This document shows, one piece after another, positions 7,908-64,000 of a stretch of DNA of 64,000 nt (position 1 is the stretch's first letter; every line of letters starts with the position of its first letter). Origin of the DNA: an uncultured bacterium (GTDB lineage Bacteria; Patescibacteriota; Minisyncoccia; UBA6257; 2-01-FULL-56-20); contig CAWJQC010000004.1 of assembly GCA_963844965.1 (NCBI GenBank), forward strand, positions 41,609 through 105,608, written 5' to 3'. Position numbers and translations under genes: made by a program. The notes beneath the pieces were generated by a model. That model was not told where the DNA came from. It saw nothing but the letters and a program-made list of their open reading frames with translations, and did no database searches.

Positions 7908-8027
7908 GGAATCAGAAAGTAGAAGGTAGAAAATAGAATTTAGAACATAGAACTGAGGGCGCGGAGAGAACAATCCTCAAAATTCCACACAGGAAATCTT
8001 AGCAGAAAACCGGTTTTCGCGCAAATC

Positions 8028-14512: not shown

Positions 14513-14608
14513 TAGAAAATAGTAAGTAGAAATTAGAAAATAGAATTTTGTCGGGATTTTCGGCGAAGTTCCGATTTCTATTTTCTATTTACTATTTTCT
14601 ACTTTCTA
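14513..14608. repeat. AT-rich low-complexity inverted repeat / bidirectional terminator hairpin (TAGAAA-word family)
   Basis: TAGAAAATAGTAAGTAGAAATTAGAAAATAGAA ... TTCTATTTTCTATTTACTATTTTCTA lies between convergent dnaE and the cytidylyltransferase gene. Related word repeats occur in many intergenic gaps. Confidence 0.6.
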
Positions 14609-15006
14609 TCTACGATATTGCTTTTATATCTATGCGGCTCGTGCGCCCTCAAAACAACCATCTTCGGCCGCCAACGAAATTCCTTGCGGTGATTTTTCAG
14701 GTCCTCTTTGAGCGCCACCTGGTCGTAACCCAAAGCGATAACGTCGGGCTTGTGCTTTTTCACGACCTCGTAAACGCCGAGTTCAGCGTCGCCGAGCGCG
14801 ACCTCGTCAACAAGAGGTTCTTTTCGCAGGTCGTCAATTCTCCGCGCGAGATTTCTCTGCGGCAGACGGCCCTTCAAGTACTCAGCCGTATGGTCCTGCG
14901 CGACTGCGACGAGCAAATAATGGCCGTATTCCCTGGCTTGTTTAAAAAATTGACGGTGACCTTCATGGATGCCGTCAAAAACGCCGAAGACCAGAACTTT
15001 TTTCAT
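14599..15006 (-). CDS. cytidylyltransferase-like (HxGH) nucleotidyltransferase
   Basis: MKKVLVFGVFDGIHEGHRQFFKQAR carries the GxFDxxHxGH nucleotidyltransferase motif, as in the RibL/TagD-like family. 135 aa. Confidence 0.6.
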   Translation of the reverse strand: MKKVLVFGVFDGIHEGHRQFFKQAREYGHYLLVAVAQDHTAEYLKGRLPQRNLARRIDDLRKEPLVDEVALGDAELGVYEVVKKHKPDVIALGYDQVALKEDLKNHRKEFRWRPKMVVLRAHEPHRYKSNIVDRK

Positions 15007-17215: not shown

Positions 17216-17277
17216 GATAGAAAATTAAAAAATTTAAAAATCAAAATGCAAAATTTGGGTGTCCTACGGACCAGATT

Positions 17278-18141
17278 TTATAATTTGTCAATTTTAAATT
17301 TTTCATTGTTATTTTGAACTTTGATTTTTACATTTTCAACTTGATACTTGCCGGTCCACAGCCACCAACGAATTTTACACGTTTCCCATAAAGTTTTCAA
17401 GTAGGCGGAAGCCGGAAGCCTTGAGCGGGCATCGTTCACCCAATGAACCGGAATTTCCTTAATTTTGTAGCCGAATTTCTTGGCCAATGCCAGGATCTCC
17501 ACGTCAAATCCCCAACCGCTGATTTTTGATAAATTGAAAATTTTTTCCGCTGCCTCATCCGTAAACGCCTTGAAGCCACACTGCGTGTCCCAAATCTTCG
17601 GCAACAGCAGTGCTTGAATGATCAAATTCCCGACCTTTCCCGGGATCTGGCGGTAGAAGGGCTGCGGCGGGTCAAGTTTGCTTCCTTTGAGCACGCGGTC
17701 ACAGATCACGACATCATATCTCTCGCGCGCCGCCACGGTCGGCGCAGAAAGCGTTCCCAGTTTCATATCATCCGAATCCGACTCAACTGGTACGCCTCCC
17801 GGAGCAAAATACGGCATCATGGCATTGAAGTGATCTATGGACGTAGAATTGTCGGCATCGGTGAAGAGCCGAATCTTCCCCCTTGCGAGAAGCATTCCCT
17901 GCCGGACAACTCCGCCCTTGCCCTTGTTCTCGGAATTATCTATCAGCTTGAGGTTTTTGATAAGCTTCGCCATATTGCTGACGATTTGGGCGGTGTTGTC
18001 CTTTGAGCCGTCGTTCACGACCAAAATTTCGTAGGAATATTCCGCGTCTGCCAGGCGCTTGTCAATATCAACGAGCGTCAAGGGCAGCCGCTCGGCCTCG
18101 TTGTAGGCGGGAATGATGATAGAAAGATAGGGCTGGGCCAT
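17278..18141 (-). CDS. family 2 glycosyltransferase (dolichyl/polyprenyl-phosphate glycosyltransferase-like)
   Basis: LSIIIPAYNEAERLPLTL...VVNDGSKDNT...DADNS are GT2 (GT-A) motifs. Confidence 0.8.
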   Translation of the reverse strand: MAQPYLSIIIPAYNEAERLPLTLVDIDKRLADAEYSYEILVVNDGSKDNTAQIVSNMAKLIKNLKLIDNSENKGKGGVVRQGMLLARGKIRLFTDADNSTSIDHFNAMMPYFAPGGVPVESDSDDMKLGTLSAPTVAARERYDVVICDRVLKGSKLDPPQPFYRQIPGKVGNLIIQALLLPKIWDTQCGFKAFTDEAAEKIFNLSKISGWGFDVEILALAKKFGYKIKEIPVHWVNDARSRLPASAYLKTLWETCKIRWWLWTGKYQVENVKIKVQNNNEKFKIDKL

Positions 18142-18144
18142 TGA

Positions 18145-18232
18145 AATAGAAAATAGAATTTAGAAAGTAGAAAGTAGTAGGTAGTAGGAAGAAAAAACTG
18201 AAAATTTCTAAATTCTAATTTCTGATTTCTAA
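18145..18232. repeat. AT-rich low-complexity inverted repeat (TAGAAA/GTAGTAG words)
   Basis: AGAAAATAGAATTTAGAAAGTAGAAAGTAGTAGGTAGTAGG ... TTTCTAAATTCTAATTTCTGATTTCTA lies between the GT2 gene and map. Confidence 0.5.
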
Positions 18233-18276
18233 ACAATTAAAATTATAACACAAAAGAAACAGCTGAAATTCCACGC

Positions 18277-24562: not shown

Positions 24563-24574
24563 GTTGGCGTTAAA

Positions 24575-24700
24575 TTTCTAATATCTAATTTCTAATTTCT
24601 AAACAATATTTGAAATTCCAATGACAAAAACTTAAAATGGTCTGTTTTCAATTTGGGACTTAGAAATTGGGGTTTGTTTAGGATTTAGAAATTAGGAATT
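24575..24700. repeat. AT-rich low-complexity inverted repeat (TTTCTAA words)
   Basis: AAATTTCTAATATCTAATTTCTAATTTCTAAAC ... TTAGAAATTGG..TTTAGAAATTAGGAATTAGG lies between rpsE and rplR. Confidence 0.5.
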
Positions 24701-24707
24701 AGGGCTT

Positions 24708-25629: not shown

Positions 25630-25736
25630 TGATAACAAATGGAAAATGTAAATATCAAAATGTAAAATGACAACCCAAAATGCAAAAATTTTTAATTCTG
25701 AATTGTAATTTTGATTTTTGCATTTTAAATTTTACG

Positions 25737-26311: not shown

Positions 26312-26392
26312 GATTATAAATAAATTTTCAATTTTTAATTTTCAATTTTAAAATGTTTGGAAATTGTAAAATTGAGAATTATAAAATTGTTT

Positions 26393-29865: not shown

Positions 29866-30198
29866 TTATTTCTTGACCTCCTTTGCCGGCGCGGCAGCCG
29901 GTGCTCCAGCGACAGCGGCGCTCGCCTCCAACTCACGCTGCATCTTGCCGCCGTGCCGCGTGAACTTCCTCGTCGGCGCGAATTCTCCCAAGCGATGGCC
30001 GACCATTTCTTCGCTCACTTTAACCTCAATGAAGATCTTGCCGTTGTGAACGCCGAAAGTGAATCCCACCATTTCCGGTGAAATCTCCGAAGCCCGCGAC
30101 CATGTCTTAACAACCACCTTGTCGTCGGGCCTGAGTTTGGAAACCTTCTTAAGAAGTTTCGGGTCAACATAAGGACCTTTCTTTAGCGAGCGGCTCAT
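29866..30198 (-). CDS. rpsS: 30S ribosomal protein S19
   Basis: [19 protein letters not shown]...[17 protein letters not shown]. Confidence 0.95.
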
Positions 30199-30204
30199 AA
30201 TGAT

Positions 30205-30268
30205 AAATTTTCAATTTCCAATTTTCCAATTTCCAAACGTTTGGAAATTCTGAACTTGGAATTATTTT
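30205..30268. repeat. AT-rich low-complexity inverted repeat (CCAATTTCC words)
   Basis: TTTCCAATTTTCCAATTTCCAAACGTTTGGAAATTCTGAACTTGGAA lies between rpsS and rplB. Confidence 0.5.
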
Positions 30269-31370: not shown

Positions 31371-32011
31371 GATTTGTAACGTTTACCCATAATTTCAACG
31401 GCTTTTCTGTCCATGAAAATATTCTTATAGTTCAAAATGTCGTAGAGATTCAGCGACTCCGGAGGAACAGTTTTTGTCTTGACCAAATTCCGCGAGGCGC
31501 GCGCCAAATTTTTGTTTTCTTTGTTCGCGACAAGAAGTAGATCAAATTTTTTATCCTTCTTTTTCAAGTTCAAAACCGGCGCGAGCGCCGCGGCAAGAAC
31601 CTTGGTTTTCGGCCGCTCCACGTTCAAATCTTCAAAAATCCTCACGTCATTGTCTTTGAGTTTGCGCGAGAGCGCGCTCACGAGAGCCAGACGCTTCATT
31701 TTCTTGTTTATCTTCTGCGAATAATCGCGCAACTTGGAAGGTCCGTGCGCCTTGCCGCCGCCAACCCACAACGGCGAGCGGATAGAGCCATGCCTCGCGC
31801 GCCCCGTTCCCTTCTGCCGCCACGGCTTTCTGCCGCCGCCTCGGACTTCGGCGCGGGTCTTTGCGTGCGCCCACGGGCGTCTGGCGTTCGCAAGCTGGGC
31901 AACCAAAACCTGTTGCACAAGCTCCGGATTCCACTTCACGCCAAAAATCTTGTCGGGTAGTTCAATCTCGCCGACCACCTCGTTTTTTAAATTATAAACC
32001 GCGGCTTTCAT
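31367..32011 (-). CDS. rplD: 50S ribosomal protein L4
   Basis: RRPWAHAKTRAEVRGGGRKPWRQKGTGRARHGSIRSPLWVGGGKAHGP. Confidence 0.95.
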   Translation of the reverse strand: MKAAVYNLKNEVVGEIELPDKIFGVKWNPELVQQVLVAQLANARRPWAHAKTRAEVRGGGRKPWRQKGTGRARHGSIRSPLWVGGGKAHGPSKLRDYSQKINKKMKRLALVSALSRKLKDNDVRIFEDLNVERPKTKVLAAALAPVLNLKKKDKKFDLLLVANKENKNLARASRNLVKTKTVPPESLNLYDILNYKNIFMDRKAVEIMGKRYKS

Positions 32012-32012
32012 T

Positions 32013-32564
32013 CTATTTTCTATTTTCTATTTTCTGTACTTCCAAAATCCCTCCCCTCGCTCCGGGAACCGCTCCCTTTATAAAAAGCAATCCGTTCTCT
32101 TTATCAACGCCGGCGACCTTCAAATTTTTTACCGTCACGCGCTCGTCGCCCATGTGGCCGGCCATGCGGTGGCCCGGCGTAACCCGCTGGGGCGCGGTGC
32201 TGCCGATGGAACCGCCGGCGCGGAAACGGTTTTTCTGTCCGTGTGTTTTCGGTCCGCCGGCGAAACCATGGCGCTTGACGACACCAGCAAAGCCACGTCC
32301 CTTCATCGTGCCCGACACGCGCACCACATCACCTTCCTTGAAAGCATCAACCTCTATTGCGTCACCAACTTTAAATTTCTCGCTTTCGGTTCTGAATTCC
32401 CGCTTTTGCTTTCCGAGAGCGAGCTGAACGGCTTCATATCCGTCCCGTTCGTTAGTGCGAACAAAAGTTACCTTATTCGGCTGCGCGCGAAGCACCGTCA
32501 CGGGCACGACGGTTTTGTCCTTCCAAATCTGGGTCATCTTCAATTTTTTCGCCAGGATAAACAT
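32013..32564 (-). CDS. rplC: 50S ribosomal protein L3
   Basis: VTVLRAQPNKVTFVRTNERDGYEAVQL...SGTMKGRGFAGVVKRHGFAGGPKTHGQ. Confidence 0.95.
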   Translation of the reverse strand: MFILAKKLKMTQIWKDKTVVPVTVLRAQPNKVTFVRTNERDGYEAVQLALGKQKREFRTESEKFKVGDAIEVDAFKEGDVVRVSGTMKGRGFAGVVKRHGFAGGPKTHGQKNRFRAGGSIGSTAPQRVTPGHRMAGHMGDERVTVKNLKVAGVDKENGLLFIKGAVPGARGGILEVQKIENRK

Positions 32565-38949: not shown

Positions 38950-40132
38950 CCGCTCCTGCGCCGACCGTCTTGCCGCCTTCGCGGATGGCAAAACGCTGTT
39001 TTTCTTCAAGCGCGACCGGGAAATGAGTTTCACGGTGAGTTTAACGGTGTCGCCCGGCATGACCATTTCCATGCCTGCCGGCAAGGGTCACTTCGCCCGT
39101 AACATCGGTCGTCCTGATATAGAACTGCGGCTTGTAGCCGTTGAAGAACGGCGAGTGGCGGCCGCCTTCCTCTTTTGAAAGCACGTAAACCTCGCGCTCG
39201 AATTCCGTGTGCGGCGTGACGCTGCCCGGCTTCGCGACAACCTGCCCGCGCTCCACGTCTTCTTTCTTCAGGCCGCGGAGCAGAACGCCGACGTTGTCGC
39301 CCGCCATGCCTTCGTCCAAGAGTCTTATTGAACATTTCAATGCCCGTGACGACGGTCTTCTGCCGTCGGCCTGCAGGCCGACGATCTCCACTTCTTCGTT
39401 CACTTTCACCTTGCCGCGCTCCACGCGGCCGGTCACGACCGTGCCGCGTCCTTCAATCGAGAAGATGTCTTCGATCGGCATAAGGAACGGCTTGTCGAAG
39501 TCGCGGACCGGATCGGGAATGAATGTCATCCACCGCTTTGATAAGGTCCAAGATCGGTTTCGCGTCCGGGTCGTCGGCGATTTCGCGGCCAACGCTTTCA
39601 AAGCCGAACCGCGGATGATCGGAGTCGTGTCGCCCGGGAATTCGTATTTCTTCAAAAGCTCGCGGACTTCGGACTCAACGAGATCAATGAGTTCCGGATC
39701 GTCCACCTGATCGCACTTATTAAGAAACACGACGATGGTCGGCACGCCGACCTGGCGGGCAAGCAAAATGTGCTCGCGCGTCTGCGGCATCGGGCCGTCG
39801 GTCGCGGCGACGACCAAAATCGCGCCGTCCATCTGCGCGGCGCCCGTGATCATGTTCTTGATATAGTCGGCGTGTCCCGGCGCGTCAATGTGCGCGTAGT
39901 GGCGCTTCTCGGATTCGTACTCCGAATGGTGCAGGGCGATCGTGATGCCGCGCGCCTTTTCCTCCGGAGCGTTGTCAATTTGGTCCACTCTCTCTTCTTT
40001 CTTCGTCAGACCCTTCAAATGCAAAACGTGCATAATCGCGGCGGTCAGGGTCGTCTTGCCGTGGTCAACGTGGCCGATCGTGCCGATGTTCATGTGCGGC
40101 TTGGCCCGGTAGAATTTTTCTTTTTCAGCCAT
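38950..40132 (-). CDS. tuf: elongation factor Tu, with four apparent single-base indels
   Basis: The N-terminus is canonical ([53 protein letters not shown]). A compensating pair near 39515-39527 and 39585-39600 scrambles [21 protein letters not shown]. Two more, near 39075-39085 and 39015-39020, break the C-terminus (..[20 protein letters not shown] / [29 protein letters not shown]). Confidence 0.88.
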
Positions 40133-43763: not shown

Positions 43764-44150
43764 TTATTTATCTTCTTCAACTTCCGGCAAACCTGTTCCG
43801 CCTCTCACCCCTTGGCCGCCGCTCTCCACGTAAGACATGGTGACATCGAATGCGTTCCGGAGATAAGGAATTTTGGCGGGACTGCTGTTGCCTTCCTCTA
43901 TCTCCGACCAGCTAATTTTGCCTTTTTCCAAAAGAGCGCTCAGAACTTCTATTTTTGATTTGGTGCCGAAATCCAAAACCGTTTCCGGTGGTGCATAAGC
44001 GATGTTTTTACCCTGCCGAAGCGCTTCCAATTCGTGGCGTTTCGCTCGTTCCTTATATTCTTCCAATTTTAATCGCAATTGCTTTACGCGCCGTCCGTCA
44101 GTAGGCAAAACTATCTCTAAACCACTTTTTTCGGCTTCCGGACCTTTCAT
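43764..44150 (-). CDS. hypothetical protein inserted between rpsG and fusA
   Basis: 128 aa and charged (LRLKLEEYKERAKRHELEALRQGK...). It is flanked tightly by the rpsG-3' and fusA-5' remnants. Confidence 0.5.
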   Translation of the reverse strand: MKGPEAEKSGLEIVLPTDGRRVKQLRLKLEEYKERAKRHELEALRQGKNIAYAPPETVLDFGTKSKIEVLSALLEKGKISWSEIEEGNSSPAKIPYLRNAFDVTMSYVESGGQGVRGGTGLPEVEEDK

Positions 44151-45240: not shown

Positions 45241-45410
45241 CCTTAGATAATCTCCAATTTACAATACCCAATTTCCAACTAAATTTCCAGATTAACAAAA
45301 TTAGCAGCCAGCCACAGCCGCTACATTAGGAAAGTGTACAGTAAACGGCGGCCAGTGTCAAACCCACCACGCTTACCCACCGCGCCTAAGAGAGATAAAA
45401 AAAAGCCGCT

Positions 45411-46221: not shown

Positions 46222-46294
46222 GTCCCTGTAGCTCAACGGATAGAGCGTGTGGCTTCGAACCACAAGGTTGCAGGTTCAAATCCTGCCAGGGACG
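46222..46294 (+). tRNA. tRNA-Arg (anticodon TCG)
   Basis: GTCCCTGTAGCTCAACGGATAGAGCGTGTGGCTTCGAACCACAAGGTTGCAGGTTCAAATCCTGCCAGGGACG, with loop CTTCGAA. It is bracketed by the perfect inverted repeat CCCTCCCACCTTTG / CAAAGGTGGGAGGG. Confidence 0.9.
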
Positions 46295-46321
46295 CAAAGG
46301 TGGGAGGGTGAAGATATCATA

Positions 46322-46367
46322 TGTGGCTTCGAACCACAGGTTCCAGGTTCGAGTCCTGGCGAGGGCA
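46322..46367 (+). pseudogene. 3' fragment of a different tRNA-Arg(TCG) (anticodon arm to acceptor 3' strand)
   Basis: TGTGGCTTCGAACCACA is identical to the anticodon arm of the neighbouring gene. It is followed by a different T-arm (CCAGGTTCGAGTCCTGG) and acceptor strand (CGAGGGC). There is no 5' acceptor or D-arm. Confidence 0.7.
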
Positions 46368-46883: not shown

Positions 46884-48221
46884 CTATTTCTGCAAGCTCA
46901 GAATTTTATTCCTGAACGTCAACTTACTCTTGAAGCAAGATAGCAATTCGCGTTTCTCGACCGTGCTGCCCTTTTTGAGAAGATATTTTGCGTACGTTTT
47001 AAGGTCAATTTCTTTAGTGGCCGCTTTCGATCCTTCTCCCAAGACATCGTTCGCGAATTTGCGATATCGTTCCATCTCGTCTTCGAATTTCTTCTGCATC
47101 CCAATCTCACTGATATCCATCTCGTCAATGATAGCGAGAAGTTGAGCGATCAATTCCTCTTCGCGAATGTATCCGCACTTGCAATCCTTATCTTTCGAGC
47201 GTGAGCATCCATAGTACACGTACCGCGCCGTCGTTCCATCCTTGTGCGCCTTATATTTCTCGCACGCACTGATGCCCGATCCGCATAGGCCGCACGAGAT
47301 CAGTTTCGTAAACGAAAATTCCTTTATCTCCGACCTGATGACAAAATCTCGGTGCAGCTGCTCCTGTACTTTATCGAACAGCTCCCGCGAAATGATTGCT
47401 TCGTGCTTGCCGCTGTACCAGTTACCGCTCTTCAGTGGATACTCAAAGATGCCGCAGTAAAATGGATTTTTGAGGATGATATAAATATTGGATAACGAAA
47501 GCACTTTCCCATTCTTTGTTCTGAATTTGATTTCCGACTTCAGCCAATGATAAAGCTTCCGGCCCGACCATTGTTCGTCGGCGACTTTCTGGAGCATTTG
47601 CTTGATGACGGGCGCTCGCAGGGGATCAATGATAACTTCACAAGGACGGTCGGTGCTCTTCTCGTTAAGATACCCTGTCGGTGCGATAGACGGACGCAAA
47701 CCTTGTTCGCACCGCATCCGTAATCCGCGCTTCACGTTTTCCGATTTGTTATCATTCTCAAGTTTCGCTTGGCTGCACAAAATCATCAACATGAATTTCT
47801 CGCTCGGCGAGTTCGTGAATTTCTGGCTGAAGGTTCTGATCTCGATAAGTAATTTTTGATCCATCAAGTCCACCAAGCCGCCAAGGTCGCCCGCGTTGCG
47901 GCTCAAGCGATCCGGCGCCCATGTAAGGATACCGTTGAATTCGCCGGAACGAATATCAATAAGCAACTCGTTAAAAATTTTTCGCTGGCCGACAGCTTTT
48001 GCGGAATGGCTTTCCTTTCTAACTTCGGCGATCTCAAGGTTATCGCGCTCGGCGATTTTCAGCATCTCCTTTATCTGACTATCAATGGAAAGCACTTGCT
48101 GTTCCTCGCTCTCCGTACTTTTCCTCGCATAGAGGCAGTATTTTATTTTTATCGCTTCGGCCTTTGTCGCAGAAACGCCCGACTGATCCCAGCCCTTTGG
48201 TATATTTGTTATTTTCTCCAT
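46884..48221 (-). CDS. large serine recombinase (resolvase domain, recombinase domain, zinc ribbon)
   Basis: YCLYARKSTESEEQQVLSIDSQ (catalytic Ser region), LTWAPDRLSRN, later CGLCGSGISAC...YYGCSR. About 445 aa from MEKITNIPKGW. Confidence 0.85.
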   Translation of the reverse strand: MEKITNIPKGWDQSGVSATKAEAIKIKYCLYARKSTESEEQQVLSIDSQIKEMLKIAERDNLEIAEVRKESHSAKAVGQRKIFNELLIDIRSGEFNGILTWAPDRLSRNAGDLGGLVDLMDQKLLIEIRTFSQKFTNSPSEKFMLMILCSQAKLENDNKSENVKRGLRMRCEQGLRPSIAPTGYLNEKSTDRPCEVIIDPLRAPVIKQMLQKVADEQWSGRKLYHWLKSEIKFRTKNGKVLSLSNIYIILKNPFYCGIFEYPLKSGNWYSGKHEAIISRELFDKVQEQLHRDFVIRSEIKEFSFTKLISCGLCGSGISACEKYKAHKDGTTARYVYYGCSRSKDKDCKCGYIREEELIAQLLAIIDEMDISEIGMQKKFEDEMERYRKFANDVLGEGSKAATKEIDLKTYAKYLLKKGSTVEKRELLSCFKSKLTFRNKILSLQK

Positions 48222-48377
48222 ACCTAAGGGATGCCGCAACGGCGGAAGGAGTCCAGAGCATCCTTGTCGGTAACTCAAAACTCGATATCAGGCGACGAAG
48301 GGGCAAAGAAGGCAAGCAGAGTGATTTCCCCAGCCACCCTCTTTAAGACCATTTATAAACGAGCTATAATAATTCTA

Positions 48378-53623: not shown

Positions 53624-56305
53624 ATGAGTGGGATAAAAATAAATCTTTCTCTCAGCGAAATCCCAGGCATCGGCCCGCGTTTTCTGGAACGGCTGGGAAA
53701 ACTCGGCATAAAAACCGTCCGTGATCTCATTTATCATTTTCCGGCCCGCTACGAGGATTTCTCCCAGATATACAAAATTTCCGACGTTGAGCCGGGGGAA
53801 CAGGTAACAATACGTGGCGTTGTTGAAGACACCAAACTGCGGCGGACTTGGAGAAAACACATGACAATCGCCGAAGCCCTGATCCGCGACGATTCCGGAA
53901 CGATACGCGCCATCTGGTTCAACCAACCATATGTTTTGAACACTCTGCGGGTCGGGCGCACGGCGAATTTCGCAGGCAAAATATCCATATCGGACGAGGA
54001 CGAAATTTATTTGAGCCACCCGGCTTATGAAATCGTCGGCAGTCGGGAGTCGGGAACGGAGAAGCAAGAAACAAAACATACAGCGCGGCTCGTCCCCATT
54101 TATCCCGAAACGCGCGGCCTCACATCCAAGGGGTTGAGATATCTGATCCAGCCAATTCTGAAAAACAGCGAACAGCTGGAGGAATGGCTGCCGCCGGAAG
54201 TTCTGCGCGAAAATAATTTTCCCGAAATAAACCTTGCGCTCAGATCCATACACTTCCCCGAAAAAACCGAGGATGCTCTTGTCGCGAAAAAACGCTTCAC
54301 TTTTGAAAACCTGTTCCTGCTGCAACTCGCCAATCTTGAACAAAAATTGAAACTCGCGCGCGAAAAAGCGCCAGTGATCAAAACCGACATAGAACACCTG
54401 AAAAAAATGATCTCGGAACTGCCATACGAACTCACGTTTTCGCAAAAGAAATCATTGTGGGAAATCATCCAGGACCTCGCCAAAAAACAGCCGATGAACC
54501 GCCTGCTCCAGGGCGACGTGGGCTCCGGCAAGACGGTTGTCGCGGCGCTCGCCGCGGTAATTACCGCGGAAAACGGGCTGCAGACCGCGTTTATGGCGCC
54601 AACCGAGGTTCTCGCGAGACAGCATTTTGAAACATTGAAAAAATTATTCGCCGGAATTCCCTCGATCCATCAACCCGTAGTTGGGCTTCTCACGTCAAGC
54701 GAAGCAAAAATCCTCTACGCGACAGACCTTGAATCAAAAATCAAAAAACCGGAGTTGCAGGAAAAAATAAAAAACGGCGAGGTAAAAATAGCCATCGGCA
54801 CGCACGCTTTGATACAAAAAGACGTGGCGTTCGGCAATCTTGCCTTTATCATCATTGACGAACAGCATAGATTCGGCGTCTCACAACGAGCTGCGCTCGT
54901 TCGCGGACAGACGCAGAATGATAATACGCGGACAGACGCTGAACAACTACTATACGAAAAAACGACGTTTGAGATAAGAAAAAGTCTGTTTGAGGTGAGA
55001 AAACAACTGGGCCTTGGTCATAAAGAAGTGGTGTATCAGAAAGCATTGGAGGAGGAGTTCAAGAAATCCGGTGTAATATTTGAGAAAGAAAAGAAAATTC
55101 CTGTCGTTTATAACAAGAAAAAGATTGGCGTTTATCAACCGGATTTTGTCATAGATAATGAAGTAATTTTGGAACTTAAGGCTCTTCCCTTTATCGGCGG
55201 CATCGAAAAAAAACAGCTGTGGAATTATTTGAGGGGTTCGGATTACAAACTCGCGCTTATGGCAAACTTTGGACCGGAAAGATTATCCATAGAGCGGGTA
55301 GTATACGATATTGCGCGGAGTCGGCGGCTGTCAGCGTCCGGTCAGCAACTGTCCGCGCCTATCCCCCACCTCCTCTCAATGTCCGCCACGCCAATCCCAC
55401 GCACGCTCATGCTCACCGTCTTCGGCGATTTGGATATATCGCTCATCACCGAACTTCCCGCCGGCAGAAAAAATATCGTAACAAAAATAATCCCCCCACG
55501 GGGCAGGAGCGAAGCCTATGAATTCATCCGCGGCGAAGTGAGGGCCAGCCGGCAGGTTTTTGTCATCTGCCCCCGCATTGACAAACCGCAGACAGGCGCA
55601 GACCACACGCAGACAAACGCAGACAAGACACAGACAGACGCAGACAATTTTCAGCGGCTGTCTGCGTCAAGTCAGCGACTGTCCGCGTTAAGTCCACGTA
55701 AGTCCGCGTTAGTGTGGGAAGTAAGATCCGTGAAAGAAGAATTTGAAAAATTATCCAAGAAAATTTTTCCGGATTTGCGCGTCGCCATGCTCCACGGCCA
55801 GCTCAAGCCAAAAGAAAAAGCGGGTATCATGAAGGACTTCCGCAACTACAAAATAGATATTCTCGTTTCAACTTCCGTCGTGGAAGTTGGCGTGGACGTG
55901 CCGAACGCAACAATAATGATGATTGAAGGCGCCGATCGCTTCGGGCTGGCTCAGATCTACCAATTCCGCGGACGCGTGGGGCGCGGCGAACACCAATCCT
56001 ATTGCTTCCTGTTCACGGATTCGTCCGCCAAAACTACGCGCGAGCGGCTGCAGGCCGTCCTTGAAGCCAAGAACGGCTTTGAGCTCGCCGAGAAGGACCT
56101 GAAGATCCGCGGTCCCGGCGAATTCCTCGGCACGGCGCAGACCGGCTTTCCCGACACGGCGATGAGCGGCCTCATGAACCCGGAGCTCGTGAAAGCAAGC
56201 CGCGAAGCGGCGGCAAAAATCGTCCAAAAAGATCCGCTTTTCAAAAATTATCCGCTCCTGAAAACCAAATTAAACGAGTTCCGGAAGGAAATCCACTTGG
56301 AGTAG
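53624..56305 (+). CDS. recG: ATP-dependent DNA helicase RecG carrying two in-frame insertions
   Basis: Wedge/OB N-terminus; motif I GDVGSGKT; motif II [11 protein letters not shown]; motif III [9 protein letters not shown]; later [15 protein letters not shown] and QFRGRVGRG. 893 aa against ~680-700 expected. The excess is accounted for by 54908-55357 and 55589-55708. Confidence 0.92.
   Translation: [893 protein letters not shown]
54908..55357 (+). other. 450-nt in-frame insertion in recG encoding a GxxExxY-family (PD-(D/E)XK-like) domain flanked by inverted word repeats
   Basis: [87 protein letters not shown] matches the GxxExxY pattern. The flanks are cgcggacagacgcagaat..tacgcggacagacgctga and the reverse-complement-like ctgtcagcgtccg..ctgtccgcgc. 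Confidence 0.75.
55589..55708 (+). repeat. 120-nt in-frame palindromic insertion in recG (solo copy of the same word-repeat arms)
   Basis: cagacaggcgcagaccacacgcagacaaacgcagacaagacacagacagacgcagaca attttca gcggctgtctgcgtcaagtcagcgactgtccgcg. It translates as [40 protein letters not shown]. Confidence 0.7.
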
Positions 56306-56571: not shown

Positions 56572-59017
56572 CTACTGCTCCATATGACCGACAAGGGTGC
56601 ATGTATAAAAGTTACCAGTGCATTGGGATGAATTAGTAACATCCCAACAAGTTGAATAAGTCTCCAGCGCGCCACTACAAGGAGTGGTATTAGCGCATGA
56701 ACTGTTGTAGTAACGAATATAAGTCATATACTGCGGGCAGAAGTAAATCGGCGTCCCGCCTGTAACTTTAAGAGTGCCGGGAATGATGACGTTGCCGTTT
56801 GCTAGAACCTGTATAGCTGCTCCGGTTGTAGTAGCTGTACCAGTATTCGGCATACTGCCGCCAATACCGACGTTGCCGGCATAGTTGATGACTAATTTAT
56901 TTGATTCTGCCGCACTAGGATAATTTCCCACCATAAGCATGGCGCCCTGATTAACATCGCCCACATCGAGCAGCACCGCATCCGCATTGGTCGTAGCCGC
57001 GGTGCCGTAGAACGTGCCGGTATTGGTATCCCTGTTCTGCTCGAACTGGGTGCCGTAATCACCGGTGTTATACAAGAACGAATAGGTGGGATTACTAAAA
57101 TCGCTGTACATCTCAAGGCCGGGGCCGGTACCGGCAGTATTTGAATATGCATAAAATTGATAGTTGGCGGGCGCCGCCGCTCCCACCCCGATTCCGGAGG
57201 TGAATAAACCTCCTCCAGTTACCGTCAGTTTCTGGGTCGGCGCCGTATTCCCGATGCCGACGTTGCCGGAGGAATTCCAAATACCGGTGCCAGGCATCGT
57301 AACGTTGCCAGTAAAGGTCGGGCTCGCTAAAAGCGCCGCTCCGGTAACCTGCGCTACCCCGTAGTCACCAGATGCCGCCACCACGGCTCCGGTTCCGCCA
57401 AATACCGAGGTGACGCCGCCGCTCGGCCAAGCCGTGATGCAATTCGCCCCGGAGATGCAATATTGAGTGGCGTTTGCGGTAACCGTTGACGTACAGAGCG
57501 TACCCTCCGCCTGAGTTTGTGAAATACCCACCGTAGCCGCCGGAGTTGGTGGCTAATCCATAAACTCCTACGCCGTTACCTGCCGCTGACTGTCCGGCAA
57601 CCCCTACCCAGTAAGAAGCGCCGACCTGTCCGCCGAGAATCCCATTCGTTGTGGCGTTGCTATTATTTCCCGTTACCGAGCCGACCCATGATGAATTGAC
57701 GGCGCTCGTGAAACTGCCTACGCCAGCAACAACCAACGGATATGCCGGCGTCGTCGTCCCGATGCCGACGTTGCCGTTCGTGATGGAGAAATATGGACCA
57801 CCCCCCATCCCAGTGCCAAGCGCCAAATTGAGGCCATAAGATTGTGACGTCAAATCAGCGTATGTAAATGCTCCGTTGCTGGTGGTGAACTTTATCCAAT
57901 CTACGTTTGACCCGTTTGTATTGTCTAGCCGTAAGGTAGACGTACTTCCACTCTGAATATCAAGTTTTGCGACCGGCGCCGTGTTCCCGATGCCGACGTT
58001 GCCGTTGTTATTTATAAACAAGGCGGGTGACGCGCCGGATGAGTCAGAACCCTGAGTCAAAAAGGCCATTGGAGAACCGTTACTGCCGATCCGGGCCCAG
58101 TTCGCAACTGCTGCCGGTCCAAGCTGTAGCAAGGCATCGGTACCGTTAGATGTCAAGTCAAACTTGGCGAATTTTGACCCGTTCACGACATGCAACGTCG
58201 TTGCCGGCGACGCCGTCCCGATGCCGACGTTGCCGCCATATGCAAGCGTCATTATTTGGGAGTACCAACTGCTGGGGTTCTGATACCCAATCGTCAAGAC
58301 CGAATTATCTGACGCTGGTGCAAAAACATACCCATTATTACTGCCAGCCATATCGCGGAGCTTGAAGGCTCCAAAGACATCAAGTGTATTTTGTGGTGAC
58401 GGCGTCCCGATGCCGACCGAGCCCGAGAAATACCCGCCGCCGTAGACGGAGAGGGCCTGCGGCAAGTTGCTGGCGGAGGATGTGGTAACGCCCAGAGCGG
58501 AAGAAACAAACACACTGTGGGGGAACCCGTAGGGAACGCCGGAATCGGCCTCTAGAGAATTGAACACCGCGGGCGTGACATAGCCGGCGTTGACGGTCCC
58601 GTTAAAATTGCCGTGGATCGTGCCGTTCACGTCAAGCTGGTAGCCAGGCGACGCCGTCCCGATGCCGACAGAACCGTCATTGCGCACGACAAGTATGGGC
58701 GACGAATTCGGATAAAGGATCTTCAATGTGTAATTCGCGGCATCAGCGGACGAAGAAGCAACGATGAGGAGTTTGGTTTCCGGCAGAGGCGTGGGCGTAC
58801 CAACGCCCAGATTCCCAGCCGCATTAGTGCTTACCGCTCCCGAACCGAAACCGGGGGTGGGAGGAGGAGAGGCAAACGCGTAGTAGGTAGTAGGTAGTAG
58901 GTAGTAGGTAGTAGCGAGAATGACGAAAAACAAAACGTGCGGCGCAAAACTCGGACGCACACCGTAAAACTTGCGGCGGAGCTTTTGCTGTTTTTGGAAC
59001 AAATCTGCGTCCATCAT
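56572..59017 (-). CDS. large secreted tail-fibre-like repeat protein (GNVGIG repeats), split by one frameshift near 57525-57540
   Basis: About 815 aa when ORFs 57365..59017 and 56572..57531 are joined (..GGGYALYVNGY / GISQTQAEGTLCTS..). The motif NGNVGIG(T/N)(A/T)(S/A)P recurs. It has an N-terminal hydrophobic segment and a Cys-rich C-terminus. Confidence 0.6.
58880..58914. repeat. heptanucleotide tandem repeat (GTAGTAG)x5 inside the 5' coding region of the tail-fibre-like gene
   Basis: gtagtaggtagtaggtagtaggtagtaggtagtag encodes ..ATTYYLLPTTYY.. on the minus strand. An inverted partner (TACTACC x3.5) lies at 59025-59049, upstream of the ATG at 59017. Confidence 0.8.
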
Positions 59018-59186
59018 AATAATTTACTACCTACTACCTACTACCTACCGCTTTTAATTGTTTCGGGGCGACAATCTCATAGCTTTATTATATAAGAACA
59101 GGGAAAGATATGTAGAAAGGGGTGTGCATAGGCGCGAAAACTGCCCGAGCGGCGGCCGCAAATTTCCCGGCCATCCGGGATATAAA

Positions 59187-59235
59187 AAAGGCTCTCGCGA
59201 GGAATTGCGAATTGCGAATCCTCACGAGAGCCAAA
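59187..59235 (-). terminator. intrinsic terminator after the 59252..59959 gene
   Basis: The minus strand reads GGCTCTCGTGAGGAttcgcaattcgcaatTCCTCGCGAGAGCCTTTTTTAT. Confidence 0.7.
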
Positions 59236-59251
59236 CATACCGGAGGGGAAT

Positions 59252-59959
59252 CTAGTGGCCGACGATGGGTGGAAGACCGGCCTGGTAGCGGCGGTAATTC
59301 CCCATGTACCGGTCCGCCACCTGAATATTCCGCACGCCGTACCAAACGTGAACCGTGCTAAGGTAACCGGCAAAGCCGATGCTTGCGAGACGCTCGGCCC
59401 TCACCATTCTCCTGCCCCACTTATGTCCCCCCCATTTATGCTCTGTCCAGCGAGGGATAGCCGAAGAAAAGTAGGAAAAAACGACATCGAACGCCGAGGC
59501 GCTCCCTAACACCCCAGCAATATTGCGATTGCCAAATTGGGTATATAGGGAGTCCGTCTCACGGGGGCCCTGCTGGCTAGCATAACGCAAACCGTTGCTA
59601 GCGACGTACTCTGGAATAAAGGGTGGCGTAGAGAGGGAACGGAACGTGGTTATGTTGTCAAACGCAAATGGCCCGCGCTCAACACCCCACATCCAAGCCT
59701 GTGTCCTCTCAAGCTTGCTCTGGTCCCGGTTTAACTTGCCGCCAGGCCAAGCCATAACCCTAAACACCTTATCAAAGGTTGATGGCTCAACCGGTGCCGC
59801 CGAACGCAAGGGCGAGATAGCGGGTGCGAGTGCCGGTGCAGACGCGGCGGATGCCGCCACGGGCGTTGACGCTAAGGGCAGTTCGGTAAGACCGTCTGCC
59901 GGAAACGCGCGAACCGAAATGATTGTCAAGATTGTCAACAAAAGCACCAGTCGCTTCAT
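59252..59959 (-). CDS. hypothetical secreted protein
   Basis: MKRLVLLLTILTIISVRAFPA is a signal peptide, followed by an Ala/Pro-rich linker. No family recognised. Confidence 0.5.
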   Translation of the reverse strand: MKRLVLLLTILTIISVRAFPADGLTELPLASTPVAASAASAPALAPAISPLRSAAPVEPSTFDKVFRVMAWPGGKLNRDQSKLERTQAWMWGVERGPFAFDNITTFRSLSTPPFIPEYVASNGLRYASQQGPRETDSLYTQFGNRNIAGVLGSASAFDVVFSYFSSAIPRWTEHKWGGHKWGRRMVRAERLASIGFAGYLSTVHVWYGVRNIQVADRYMGNYRRYQAGLPPIVGH

Positions 59960-60178
59960 AACGACCTCCTCAAAAAGATTTAATTTAATTGCGCAAAGCA
60001 ATTTGGCTACTCCCAAGAATAACCAAATCGCTTTGCGCAAGCAATATATTCATTTTTCAAGATACTTGCCTATCTATGCTAATTATAGCACAAATAAACA
60101 ACCTGTCAACCCCCACCTTTTTCCGAAAAGGTGGGGGTCAAGTGGCCGCGGCGGCTGACCCGCTGAAGCGACGATACC

Positions 60179-60438
60179 CTACAACTCATAAATCTCATCT
60201 CGCTTGCCTATTTTGAGTATATAAATTGCGCCATTTCTAACGTCAAATACCAACCTATAATCGCCCACGCGAAATCTGAACTCCCCGCCGCGGTTGTCAG
60301 CCAAACGCTTGGCAAACCTCAACGGATTATCCTCTGACGCATAAATGCGCATCTTCTTTGCTTTGCGATGCGCACTTGAACTTCTCTCGGCAGGGATTCC
60401 AACTGCTTAGCCGCCCGCTTGGCATAGAAAATCTTCGT
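60179..60438 (-). pseudogene. decayed copy of the RelE/ParE toxin gene
   Basis: About 97% identical by eye to 62204..62458, but the start ATG is mutated to ACG (cgt at 60436-60438) and a 5-nt insertion (ctttgctttgcg versus cttcgcg) shifts the frame. Confidence 0.7.
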
Positions 60439-60614
60439 TACAATCCCAACTTCTTAAACAGCTTATCCTGCGATATAGTTTTTTTTGCCTTGATTTCTTT
60501 TCTCGCTTCGCGGACATCCAAAATATGCGCGAGGTAGCCAAGCAGGGCGCCGAAGCGAGCATCCGTTTTCCTCAAACGCTCGTATTCTTGTTTTGGTATA
60601 GTAACCGTGGTCAT
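60438..60614 (-). CDS. antitoxin (copy 1) of the RelE/ParE pair, intact
   Basis: MTTVTIPKQEYERLRKTDARFGALLGYLAHILDVREARKEIKAKKTISQDKLFKKLGL, identical in protein to copy 2. Confidence 0.6.
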   Translation of the reverse strand: MTTVTIPKQEYERLRKTDARFGALLGYLAHILDVREARKEIKAKKTISQDKLFKKLGL

Positions 60615-60737
60615 ATAAGTGCATTATAGTAAACCGGCGGCGGATATCAACCCCCACACCAAACGAGGACTTTCCGGGTCCCGCGCCGAAGGCGCATGTC
60701 CTCGTTAGGATTCTCGATAGGAATTGCCGGTGCGACA

Positions 60738-61916: not shown

Positions 61917-62203
61917 ACATTTAAGATAATCCCAAAGCATGTAGCTGTCAACTCCTCTCAACTCCCGAGAAAACCCAGATGGCGAGCTTCTCCCTGCCTC
62001 GATAGGGTAGAAAAACAACTCAAACAGCCCAACGAAATTCGTTGGGCTGGATTTTTTTAACCAATGGCGTCACCCGCCGTTGAATTCCTTAATATCTTTT
62101 GGCGAACACCGTTTAAACTACCTGTCAACCCCCACCTTTTTTCCGAAAAGGCGGGGGTCAAGCGGCCGCGGCGGCTGACCCGCTGAGCTGAAGCGACGAT
62201 ACC

Positions 62204-62458
62204 CTACAACTCATAAATCTCATCTCGCTTGCCTATTTTGAGTATATAAATTGCGCCATTTCTAACGTCAAATACCAACCTATAATCGCCCACGCGAAAT
62301 CTGAACTCCCCGCCGCGGTTATCAGCCAAACGCTTGGCAAACCTCAACGGATTATCCTCTGACGCATAAAAGCGCATCTTCTTCGCGATGCGCATTTGAA
62401 CTTCTCTCGGCAGGGATTCCAACCGCTTAGCCGCCCGCTTGGCATAGAAAATCTTCAT
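62204..62458 (-). CDS. RelE/ParE-family toxin (intact copy)
   Basis: 84 aa; ...GGEFRFRVGDYRLVFDVRNGAIYILKIGKRDEIYEL is the typical RelE/ParE C-terminal pattern. Its ATG overlaps the antitoxin stop (TAATG). Confidence 0.75.
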   Translation of the reverse strand: MKIFYAKRAAKRLESLPREVQMRIAKKMRFYASEDNPLRFAKRLADNRGGEFRFRVGDYRLVFDVRNGAIYILKIGKRDEIYEL

Positions 62459-62634
62459 TACAATCCCAACTTCTTAAACAGCTTATCCTGCGATATAGTT
62501 TTTTTTGCCTTGATTTCTTTTCTCGCTTCGCGGACATCCAAAATATGCGCGAGGTAGCCAAGCAGGGCGCCGAAGCGAGCATCCGTTTTCCTCAAACGCT
62601 CGTATTCTTGTTTTGGTATAGTAACCGTGGTCAT
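62458..62634 (-). CDS. antitoxin (copy 2) of the RelE/ParE pair
   Basis: 58 aa, the same sequence as copy 1, translationally coupled to the toxin. Confidence 0.6.
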   Translation of the reverse strand: MTTVTIPKQEYERLRKTDARFGALLGYLAHILDVREARKEIKAKKTISQDKLFKKLGL

Positions 62635-62678
62635 ATTAAGTGCATTATAGCAAACCGGCGGCGGATGTCAACCCCCAC

Positions 62679-62738
62679 ACCAAACGAGGACGCGCGCCTT
62701 CGGCGCAGGACCCGGAAAGTCCTCGTTTGGTGTGGGGG
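62679..62738. repeat. 20-bp perfect-stem hairpin (CCCCCACACCAAACGAGGAC ... GTCCTCGTTTGGTGTGGGGG)
   Basis: A perfect inverted repeat around a 28-nt loop. The loop is present in the opposite orientation in the copy-1 region (60671-60697). Confidence 0.8.
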
Positions 62739-62946: not shown

Positions 62947-64000
62947 TCATTTCAGAAGAGCGTCAACTTTTTCTTGGAGCGCGGCGTTCTGCGCCTGAAG
63001 AGCGCTGATCTCTTGTTGCTGCTCCTTGATGGATTCTATCATCGGCGCGATAAGCCCAGTATAATCCAGACCAAGGGTTCCGCTCGCGTCAGTTTCCACC
63101 AACTGCGGGAAAACCGTCTGTACATTCTGCGCGGTTAAACCGAGCTGCTCTCCACTGCCCATCAGTTTTGTATCTTTCCATTCAAAGGAAACCGGCGTCA
63201 GTAACTCAAGCTCCGCAAGCGAACCCGACAGTGGAACTATATTCTTCTTCAAACGCTCGTCGGAGCTATTTATCCACTGCCCAGCATTGTTTGTATACTC
63301 GCCGTGGGCTCCCTGAAAGTCATACGTACTGCCGGAACCATAGACGCCGATTGCAGCAGTTGAAAACACCCCATACCCTGCGGGATTACCGAAGTATCCA
63401 GCGGAACCGTTCGCGCCCGCGGTATCCGAATATCCTTCCACCCCAACCCCAGTACCAGCGTTGTAGCCATAGACGGCGGGAAGACCATTACCAGTACCGT
63501 AGCCATAGACCCCATACCCAGTCGCACCAGCAGTGCCATAGACACCATACATAGAGCCGGTGCCATAAATCCCTGCCCCAGCTTGCCCGGCGCCACCGAC
63601 GCTTAATGTTGACGCCGGTGCCGTCGTCCCGATGCCGACGTTGCCGTTCGTGATGGAGAAATATGGACCACCCCCCATCCCAGTGCCAAGCGCCAAATTG
63701 AGGCCATAAGATTGTGACGTCAAATCAGCGTATGTAAATGCTCCGTTGCTGGTGGTGAACTTTATCCAATCTACGTTTGACCCGTTTGTTTTGTCTAGCC
63801 GTAAGGTAGACGTACTTCCACTCTGAATATCAAGTTTTGCGACCGGCGCCGTGTTCCCGATGCCGACGTTGCCGTTCGTGATGGAGAAATATGGACCACC
63901 CCCCATCCCAGTGCCAAGCGCCAAATTGAGGCCATAAGATTGTGACGTCAAATCAGCGTATGTAAATGCTCCGTTGCTGGTGGTGAACTTTATCCAATCT
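62947..64000 (-). CDS. tail-fibre-like repeat protein with a C-terminal intramolecular chaperone (Peptidase_S74 / endosialidase-chaperone) domain; N-terminus beyond the right window edge
   Basis: The C-terminus reads SSDERLKKNIVPLSGSLAELELLTPVSFEWKD...LGLTAQNVQTVFPQLV...LDYTGLIAPMIESIKEQQQEISALQAQNAAL, the S74 chaperone domain plus coiled coil. Upstream are 76-aa tandem repeats containing GNVGIG. Confidence 0.75.
   Translation of the reverse strand, partial: DWIKFTTSNGAFTYADLTSQSYGLNLALGTGMGGGPYFSITNGNVGIGNTAPVAKLDIQSGSTSTLRLDKTNGSNVDWIKFTTSNGAFTYADLTSQSYGLNLALGTGMGGGPYFSITNGNVGIGTTAPASTLSVGGAGQAGAGIYGTGSMYGVYGTAGATGYGVYGYGTGNGLPAVYGYNAGTGVGVEGYSDTAGANGSAGYFGNPAGYGVFSTAAIGVYGSGSTYDFQGAHGEYTNNAGQWINSSDERLKKNIVPLSGSLAELELLTPVSFEWKDTKLMGSGEQLGLTAQNVQTVFPQLVETDASGTLGLDYTGLIAPMIESIKEQQQEISALQAQNAALQEKVDALLK
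63628..64000. repeat. 228-bp (76-codon) tandem coding repeat, at least 1.6 copies in the window
   Basis: cccgatgccgacgttgccgttcgtgatggagaaatatggacc... restarts at 63628 and at 63856 and is near-identical. The same ~255 bp block occurs at 57752-58006 in the paralog. Confidence 0.85.

Follow-up and report, generated by a model that had tools for sequence, protein, structure and literature searches.

Complementary heptanucleotide tracts around the start codon of a tail-fibre-like gene in a Patescibacteria genome: a possible slippage and RNA-structure switch

Introduction

Why should a gene for a tail-fibre-like protein begin between two complementary tracts of a seven-nucleotide repeat? The question is raised by one locus in a stretch of 64,000 nucleotides (nt) from contig CAWJQC010000004.1 of an uncultured bacterium, a Patescibacteria (candidate phyla radiation) chromosome segment that also carries dnaE, recG, EF-G, EF-Tu, the S10/spc cluster, RNase P RNA and tRNA genes. 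We refer to this whole stretch as the window, and all coordinates are positions within it. A host-attached way of life is widely assumed for bacteria of the candidate phyla radiation, and surface proteins resembling fibres are candidates for making the contact. We tentatively propose, giving the idea somewhat less than an even chance, that a tandem-repeat-armed hairpin at the start of this gene acts as a combined slippage and RNA-structure switch. The parts of the locus are as follows.

57365..59017, minus strand: tail-fibre-like open reading frame (ORF) of 550 amino acids (aa) with GNVGIGT-type repeats, ATG at 59017
59025..59048, minus strand: perfect (GUAGUAG)x3.4 tract, 5' hairpin arm, upstream of the ATG (-8 to -31)
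58915..59024, minus strand: 110-nt hairpin loop containing an AT-rich leader, the ATG (59017-59015) and signal-peptide codons 1-34 (n- and h-regions)
58880..58914, minus strand: perfect (CUACUAC)x5 tract, 3' hairpin arm, codons 35-46 of the fibre-like ORF, in the signal peptide
58871..59017, minus strand: signal-peptide coding region of 49 codons, cleavage predicted between AFA and SPPP from homologue alignment and Kyte-Doolittle hydropathy

Two perfect tracts predicted to pair across the start codon

Tandem Repeats Finder recovered both tracts as period-7 arrays with 100% matches (GTAGTAG, 5.0 copies, 58880-58914; TACTACC, 3.4 copies, 59025-59048), and together they form a 24-nt inverted repeat that is 100% complementary, with a spacing of 111-118 nt depending on register. 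The preliminary description of this DNA had placed the upstream tract 8-32 nt before the ATG and held that the two tracts are complementary and can pair around the start codon; we found both tracts perfect and the upstream one at -8 to -31, and the predicted folds agree with pairing in two sequence contexts. In the minus-strand RNA of 58860-59070 (211 nt) the tracts were paired at a predicted free energy of -68.1 kcal/mol (z = -5.6, equalled by 0 of 200 shuffles), and they were still paired within a 386-nt context (z = -3.9), the predicted arm-arm duplex measuring 24-27 bp. Rfam at the gathering threshold gave no match at 58.8-59.1 kb and returned only RNase P and tRNAs from the window. The repeat differs between its strands in coding terms: the GTAGTAG strand places TAG in all three frames, and the CTACTAC strand reads LLPTTYY in every frame. 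Both arms of this pair are perfect, whereas most sibling arrays in the window match at 68-92%, and the only other 100% perfect array that Tandem Repeats Finder reported in the window lies at 32011-32035. Such perfection suggests recent slippage.

A predicted duplex of this kind could act at the RNA level alone, controlling translation or mRNA decay (for example through RNase III or ribosome-dependent opening), with the repeats providing pairing in multiple registers. Both sequence contexts predict a stable duplex, sibling hairpins lie directly beside start codons, and AT-rich leaders that lack a Shine-Dalgarno sequence precede most of the window's ATG genes. There is also a precedent in Haemophilus influenzae, where a heptanucleotide simple sequence repeat (SSR) forms a hairpin in the 5' untranslated region (UTR) of hmw1A that is processed by RNase III and is needed for phase variation (PMC12721329). 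Counting against a purely RNA-level switch, the AUG is placed in a loop of 110 nt, where it may stay accessible, and the frameshift effect of slippage exists anyway. We consider this explanation improbable.

The inverted repeats (24-35 bp) that flank the start region could also allow the 110-bp start segment to flip and so swap the N-terminus of the protein. Simulated inversion of 58915-59024 keeps the mature frame open from a GTG with an A-rich leader, and the reverse complement of the loop is open on the plus strand (58937-59095), encoding a basic N-terminus and a leucine-rich stretch. An open frame of this length is nevertheless estimated to arise by chance in about 15% of cases, so it is probably fortuitous, and acidic residues fall within the hydrophobic stretch of the inverted N-terminus. 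The ORFs scanned from 46.8 to 64 kb include no invertase. Their sole recombinase is a large serine recombinase encoded next to tRNA genes at a distance of 11 kb, and sibling hairpins in operon spacers cannot invert as switches. An invertible start segment therefore strikes us as extremely improbable.

The start site and signal peptide of the fibre-like gene

The downstream tract occupies nt 104-138 of the ORF and reads A-TTYYLLPTTYY-A. A homologue search with the first 280 aa of the fibre protein gave best identities of 37-41%, and ten homologues all have an N-terminal signal peptide followed by the motif AxA-(F)xGP...G.G.GA.G..D..GN..(I/V)GT. In the window protein the alignment with this motif starts at AFASPPPTPGFGSGAV, directly after the tract, and one homologue has TAHASPPCTPGS at the corresponding point. 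Because the conserved mature N-terminus begins directly behind the tract, the tract is translated as part of the signal peptide, in keeping with the earlier assignment of the repeat to a signal or transmembrane segment; the hydrophobic core VLFFVILA has a hydropathy (Kyte-Doolittle) inside the homologue range. A true start downstream of the repeat, which the preliminary description had named as the circumstance that would undo its proposal, is ruled out by this alignment together with the absence of an in-frame ATG, GTG or TTG from the roughly 50 codons that follow the tract.

The ORF matches PHROG tail-fibre families, and from these matches, the signal peptide and a paralogue with a Peptidase_S74 domain we infer a surface location and a role as a surface or host-interaction protein. 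A Patescibacteria contig with one of the best homologues (41% identity) has the same neighbourhood beside recG. Two candidate transcription signals lie upstream.

59087..59116, minus strand: sigma-70-like promoter candidate (TCTACA, 18-nt spacer, TATAAT) from a consensus match at 10 of 12 positions
59184..59232, minus strand: intrinsic-terminator-like hairpin and T-run behind the upstream gene 59252..60040

If the promoter candidate (59116-59087) is real, transcription would begin near 59080 and the upstream tract falls in the 5' UTR, and the terminator-like hairpin would make the fibre gene its own transcription unit.

Consequences of a changed number of units

The effects of unit number were obtained by simulation on the ORF sequence. 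With 2, 5 or 8 units the full ORF is read from the ATG, and the assembled count of five thus keeps it in frame. With 1, 4 or 7 units a stop follows after 52-66 residues, and the mature frame is not open again until a TTG some 50 codons further downstream. With 3, 6 or 9 units the mature protein comes into frame with a second potential start.

58960..58962, minus strand: alternative GTG start (GTG at 58962), joining the mature frame at 3, 6 or 9 units as MCVRVLRRTFCFSSFS-LLPTTYY..., with a weaker leader

Read from the ATG, four units give a 59-aa product and six units a 66-aa product, so that the frame shift expected earlier from the gain or loss of one unit translates into a truncated product of 59-66 aa. 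Phase variation of the fibre gene is accordingly a plausible consequence of the sequence.

In the assembled sequence the fibre gene is itself interrupted downstream.

56572..57531, minus strand: continuation of the fibre gene in another frame after a 1-nt shift near 57480 (GGTTACC)

Short G or C runs elsewhere in the window carry 1-nt frameshifts of the same kind, splitting EF-G (~41895) and scrambling the C-terminus of EF-Tu (~39010-39060). Since both genes are essential, the assembly appears prone to indels, and the shifts in EF-G, EF-Tu and the fibre gene together suggest assembly errors rather than real pseudogenes. The shift near 57480 is, by comparison with EF-G and EF-Tu, probably an assembly indel and not pseudogenization; the reading of the fibre gene as a pseudogene is thereby weakened. 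These errors raise the further question of whether assembly could have produced false unit counts or even the inverted duplication. The known errors are single-base changes at homopolymers and not 7-nt units. Through the tract the ORF stays in frame, and its plausible signal peptide meets the conserved AxA site exactly; arrays of this sort are also present in relatives that were assembled independently. An artefact is in our view very improbable.

A family of tandem-repeat-armed hairpins in the window

Seven was the only enriched tandem period in the 3-12 nt range (100 window positions above threshold versus 0 in shuffles), and more than ten arrays or hairpins with 7-nt periodic arms are present. 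In addition to the fibre-gene pair, period-7 arrays lie at the following positions.

7910-7954: period-7 array
14513-14609: period-7 array
17221-17336: period-7 array
18144-18233: period-7 array
24569-24707: period-7 array
25637-25734: period-7 array
26323-26390: period-7 array
30197-30265: period-7 array
32011-32035: period-7 array
45249-45278: period-7 array

Their units are mostly (TAGNNNN)n or its complement, in which the four spacer bases vary, and include TAGAAAA, TAGAAAT, TAGTAGG and AATTTCC. The arrays, most of them in spacers of ribosomal-protein operons, are situated between convergent genes or 0 to ~21 nt before the start codons of the L4, S19, S14, S5, S12 and GT2 genes; the upstream arm of the fibre gene stops 8 nt short of its ATG. 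Several of the array hairpins fold strongly (z = -8.3 after dnaE, and -4.9, -4.4 and -3.3 elsewhere), and other arrays are single and unstructured. The 14-mer GTAGTAGGTAGTAG, which comprises two units, has seven window copies at no more than one mismatch (0 expected from 100 shuffles). One of them, at 18174-18187, coincides with the intergenic hairpin near 18175-18190 in which the preliminary description had noticed the same words. Array 18144-18188 passes from TAGAAAA units into GTAGTAG units, and this gradation links the two unit types. What the window copies have in common is the architecture of tandem-repeat arms and not sequence or loop; a single conserved structured RNA family is ruled out by the differences in loops and units among copies. 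The earlier suggestion that the 5' end of the fibre gene derives from a generic intergenic repeat is thereby strongly supported, and the link extends more widely than had been proposed, through the window and into relatives.

The persistence of TAG or its complement every 7 nt, with four variable spacer bases, in most arrays of the window and of relatives suggests another kind of reader. HutP binds three XAG triplets parted by four sequence-independent spacer nucleotides (PMC2425495), and the tract sequence offers at least three XAG triplets at 7-nt spacing. A multimeric HutP-like RNA-binding protein could therefore bind (UAGNNNN)n arrays and, by opening or closing the hairpins, govern the genes behind them, the fibre gene included. 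A Pfam scan of 38 window ORFs gave no match to HutP, arrays 26323-26390 and 30197-30265 have no TAG, the arms in some relatives have a period of 8-10 nt, and the orientation of the TAG arm relative to start codons is inconsistent. We give such a reader little chance.

Elements inserted in frame within recG

Elements of this kind are also present within coding sequence, and the neighbouring recG gene contains two. In the window RecG is 893 aa long (ORF 53624..56305) versus 718 aa in a Patescibacteria contig that carries a homologue of the fibre gene (L123). One insertion, at 55580-55694, is an in-frame hairpin with period-10 arms (CGCAGACAGA and its complement) translated as PQTGADHTQTNADKTQTDADNFQRLSASSQRLSAL; CGCAGACAGA-type units also build intergenic hairpins in the relative L143. 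The other, at 54902-55357, is a complete GxxExxY (TIGR04256 / PDDEXK_3) domain inserted in frame and bounded by 16-nt inverted arms of CGCGGACAGACGC type, the same unit type as in the 55580-55694 hairpin. RecG of L123 is without this domain, and on the sequence features at hand we interpret 54902-55357 as a hairpin element with nuclease-fold cargo in its loop. With two in-frame elements in recG, the fibre-gene case is not unique in kind. The fibre gene stands apart in having its start codon within the loop, a perfect tract prone to frameshifting as one of the arms, and no mismatch in either arm.

Comparable elements in relatives and other phyla

Ribosomal protein L2 of the window is 88-89% identical to its nearest database sequences, among whose top matches Candidatus Liptonbacteria is the most specific recurring name, the others being labelled Minisyncoccia, Patescibacteria group or Wolfebacteria. 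Arrays also occur in four ribosomal-protein operons with 79-89% L2 identity (L136-L143) and on contigs with more distant Patescibacteria homologues (L121, L123, L011, L016). Period 7 is again the sole clearly enriched period in L136, L137/L138 and L139, and the hairpin arms of L140/L141 and L143 are built from 8-10 nt units. Orthologous spacers of relatives contain other units or none.

Individual copies in relatives have features of their own. In L136 (9601-11520), a dispersed element of the form [(NAGAATN)n ... ACCA(TTCTAAA)4-5 CTTG], with conserved ends, is present in at least four ribosomal-protein spacers. In L137 (9865-15199), three spacers contain a different element, whose terminal inverted repeats are CCCGTTAGAAAATTAA...TTTAATTTTCTAACGGG, and a further spacer, S14-S8, holds a variant with the arm CCCGTTAGAAGC...GCTTCTAACGGG.

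A scan of a genome collection for (GTAGTAG)x3 returned at least 120 loci in many phyla, including Pleurocapsales cyanobacteria, Bacteroidota and some Patescibacteria. These loci are mostly intergenic and often 10-25 nt before real starts, and an exact inverted partner was found for one of 120 among the matches listed. In-frame insertions of three CTACTAC units are rare and occur in ordinary enzymes of other phyla (L071, L100). A metagenome scan for the paired architecture, (GTAGTAG)2-N95-125-(CTACTAC)2, gave 11 loci, 10 of them intergenic and one that could not be assigned.

This distribution bears on a rival account, in which a generic element, or local slippage, overlaps the 5' end of the gene by chance, the signal peptide accommodates the additional LLPTTYY residues, and unit number is stable over ecological time without gene-specific regulation. 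Such elements are common both in the window and in relatives, two of them lie in frame in recG, three-unit CTACTAC tracts exist in enzymes of other phyla, and the homologues of the fibre gene are without the tract, which here has only five units. Opposed to this are the 100% perfection of both arms, set against 68-92% in most other arrays and arguing for recent or ongoing slippage or homogenization, and a gene class typical of contingency loci. Moreover, because any single-unit slip abolishes the protein, a functional consequence would be unavoidable if slippage occurs. We regard a tolerated by-product as unlikely, if still a serious contender.

Proposed mechanism and points against it

The combined slippage and RNA-structure switch would operate as follows. 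The two tracts are the arms of one of the lineage's hairpin elements, with (TAGNNNN)n in one arm and its complement in the other. Such an element is normally intergenic and beside start codons, and here spans the start of a gene for a secreted fibre-like protein, such that the 5' arm would lie in the 5' UTR, the loop provides the leader, ATG and n- and h-regions, and the 3' arm forms the end of the signal peptide. The perfect 35-nt tract could serve as a slippage hot spot, producing stochastic switching between on, alternative-start and off states. In the mRNA, a duplex ending 8 nt before the AUG might lower initiation in an organism that uses open AU-rich leaders; it could also be a target of double-strand RNases, and a translating ribosome would need to open it. 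The anatomy of the locus, the effect of unit number on the reading frame (by simulation), the predicted fold and the membership of the element family are established here, whereas slippage in living cells and an influence of the hairpin on expression are inferred.

Several observations weigh against this proposal. The orthologous locus was absent from exact look-ups of three window proteins, from the homologue search and from a metagenome scan, which allowed 2-6 units between the two flanks and returned 0 matches, and no (CTACTAC)-type tract was present in the genes of the homologues checked. Among the 11 metagenome loci with the paired architecture, none lies in a fibre-like gene and none around a credible start, so the architecture is not a conserved device of this gene family. 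Five units are few compared with heptanucleotide switches that have been studied: documented heptanucleotide tracts range from 1-13 to 13-38 units, the latter in hmw of H. influenzae (PMC2651432). The GTAGTAG unit itself reaches 9-11 copies in other Patescibacteria (L011, L025). In the predicted fold the start codon is placed in the loop and outside the stem. The in-frame elements of recG may simply indicate that such elements, abundant elsewhere for unrelated reasons, are tolerated within ORFs. Finally, the assembly is prone to 1-nt indels, and the fibre gene carries one of these frameshifts downstream.

Comparison with known systems

The closest analogue of the fibre-gene tract appears to be the Neisseria opa repeat. 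In opa genes, CTCTT pentamers in the leader-peptide coding region encode hydrophobic residues, and the number of units sets the frame of the mature protein. The fibre gene resembles opa in having a repeat with a unit length not divisible by three within the signal-peptide coding part of a (putative) surface protein gene. It differs in its 7-nt unit, its count of only five copies, a complementary 5'-UTR copy able to pair with the coding tract, and its occurrence in Patescibacteria, where it is known here from one sequence.

As in hmw1A and hmw2A, a heptanucleotide SSR upstream of the gene forms one arm of a long RNA hairpin, in our case a predicted one. The hmw SSR pairs with a G-rich sequence that is not a repeat, in a hairpin lying wholly upstream of the start (PMC12721329), whereas the upstream tract of the fibre gene would pair with a complementary SSR within the ORF, with the start codon in the loop. 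Heptanucleotide tracts also lie in or near H. influenzae genes, including (AACAACC)n at a TonB-dependent receptor gene and (AATTTTG)14 inside hmw1a (PMC2651432). As with SSRs in H. influenzae ORFs, unit number truncates or restores the fibre ORF (by simulation), but the between-strain differences in unit number documented for H. influenzae (PMC2651432) contrast with a single sequence here.

Start-proximal heptamer arrays have been described for the TAACTGA direct repeats of Beggiatoaceae, Cyanobacteria and Bacteroidetes, which are found mostly a few nt upstream of start codons, including those in ribosomal-protein operons, and whose hosts have few Shine-Dalgarno sequences (PMC4679880). One orientation of TAACTGA stops all three frames and the other is occasionally translated at protein termini (PMC4679880); long heptanucleotide SSRs in general were treated by Mrazek et al. 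2007, as summarized in PMC4679880. The window arrays are likewise start-proximal and mostly intergenic, with stops in one orientation and a translatable reading in the other. Unlike TAACTGA, they consist of TAGNNNN variants instead of one fixed heptamer and are commonly inverted pairs that fold into hairpins. Dispersed intergenic hairpins in operons are also typical of REP/BIME and MITE-type elements, and the L136 copies with their conserved ends ACCA(TTCTAAA)nCTTG fit this likeness. Unlike those elements, the window copies are common in architecture only, no RAYT-type or other transposase is associated with them, and one copy holds a GxxExxY nuclease-fold domain in its loop.

Novelty and possible significance

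Repeat-mediated frameshift switches and heptanucleotide SSRs are well known, and start-proximal heptamer arrays have been described (PMC4679880). A literature search returned no paper that ties Patescibacteria, Saccharibacteria or the candidate phyla radiation to heptanucleotide or SSR phase variation, and in the literature searched we found no description of complementary tracts around a start codon, of such a locus in Patescibacteria or of lineage-wide tandem-repeat-armed hairpins. If the slippage switch is real, the fibre gene would give the candidate phyla radiation its first described contingency locus and a first indication that such loci exist here as they do in host-adapted pathogens. 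The complementary tracts around the start would then couple a DNA-level switch (unit number) to RNA structure (stem length and register).

The element family is the more unusual part of these observations and may matter more than the single locus, since hairpins across ribosomal-protein operons and recG bear on mRNA processing and translation in genomes without Shine-Dalgarno sequences. A more ambitious reading, which we think quite unlikely to hold in full, would be that Liptonbacteria-like Patescibacteria harbour an undescribed class of hairpins with arms of 7-10 nt tandem units, located in ribosomal spacers by start codons, subject to fast turnover and capable of in-frame insertion (recG, fibre gene), for which the GxxExxY PD-(D/E)XK cargo might be a mobility or processing enzyme. 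One member would have been recruited at the fibre gene as a promoter-proximal leader and signal peptide, giving the combined RNA-structure and slippage switch.

Further features of the region

A paralogue of the fibre gene, extending from 62947 to beyond 64000, carries a Peptidase_S74 chaperone domain. The two genes, 5.9 kb apart, share blocks that are 95-99% identical (57721-58006 versus 63591-63876 and 63843-64000), as would be expected of a variable surface-protein family. Toxin-antitoxin modules (HicAB, ParE-type) between the paralogues are themselves duplicated, with 60110-60670 and 62130-62691 being 91-98% identical, and the fibre and toxin-antitoxin region looks recently rearranged or under gene conversion.

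Between the S7 and EF-G genes, a conserved 128-aa ORF without a Pfam match is present both in the window (43764-44150, minus strand) and in L137 (1408-1794). The large serine recombinase mentioned above (46884..48278, minus strand) has Resolvase, Recombinase and zinc-ribbon domains and stands beside the tRNA genes at 46222-46359; together, recombinase and tRNA genes may mark the edge of an integrated element.

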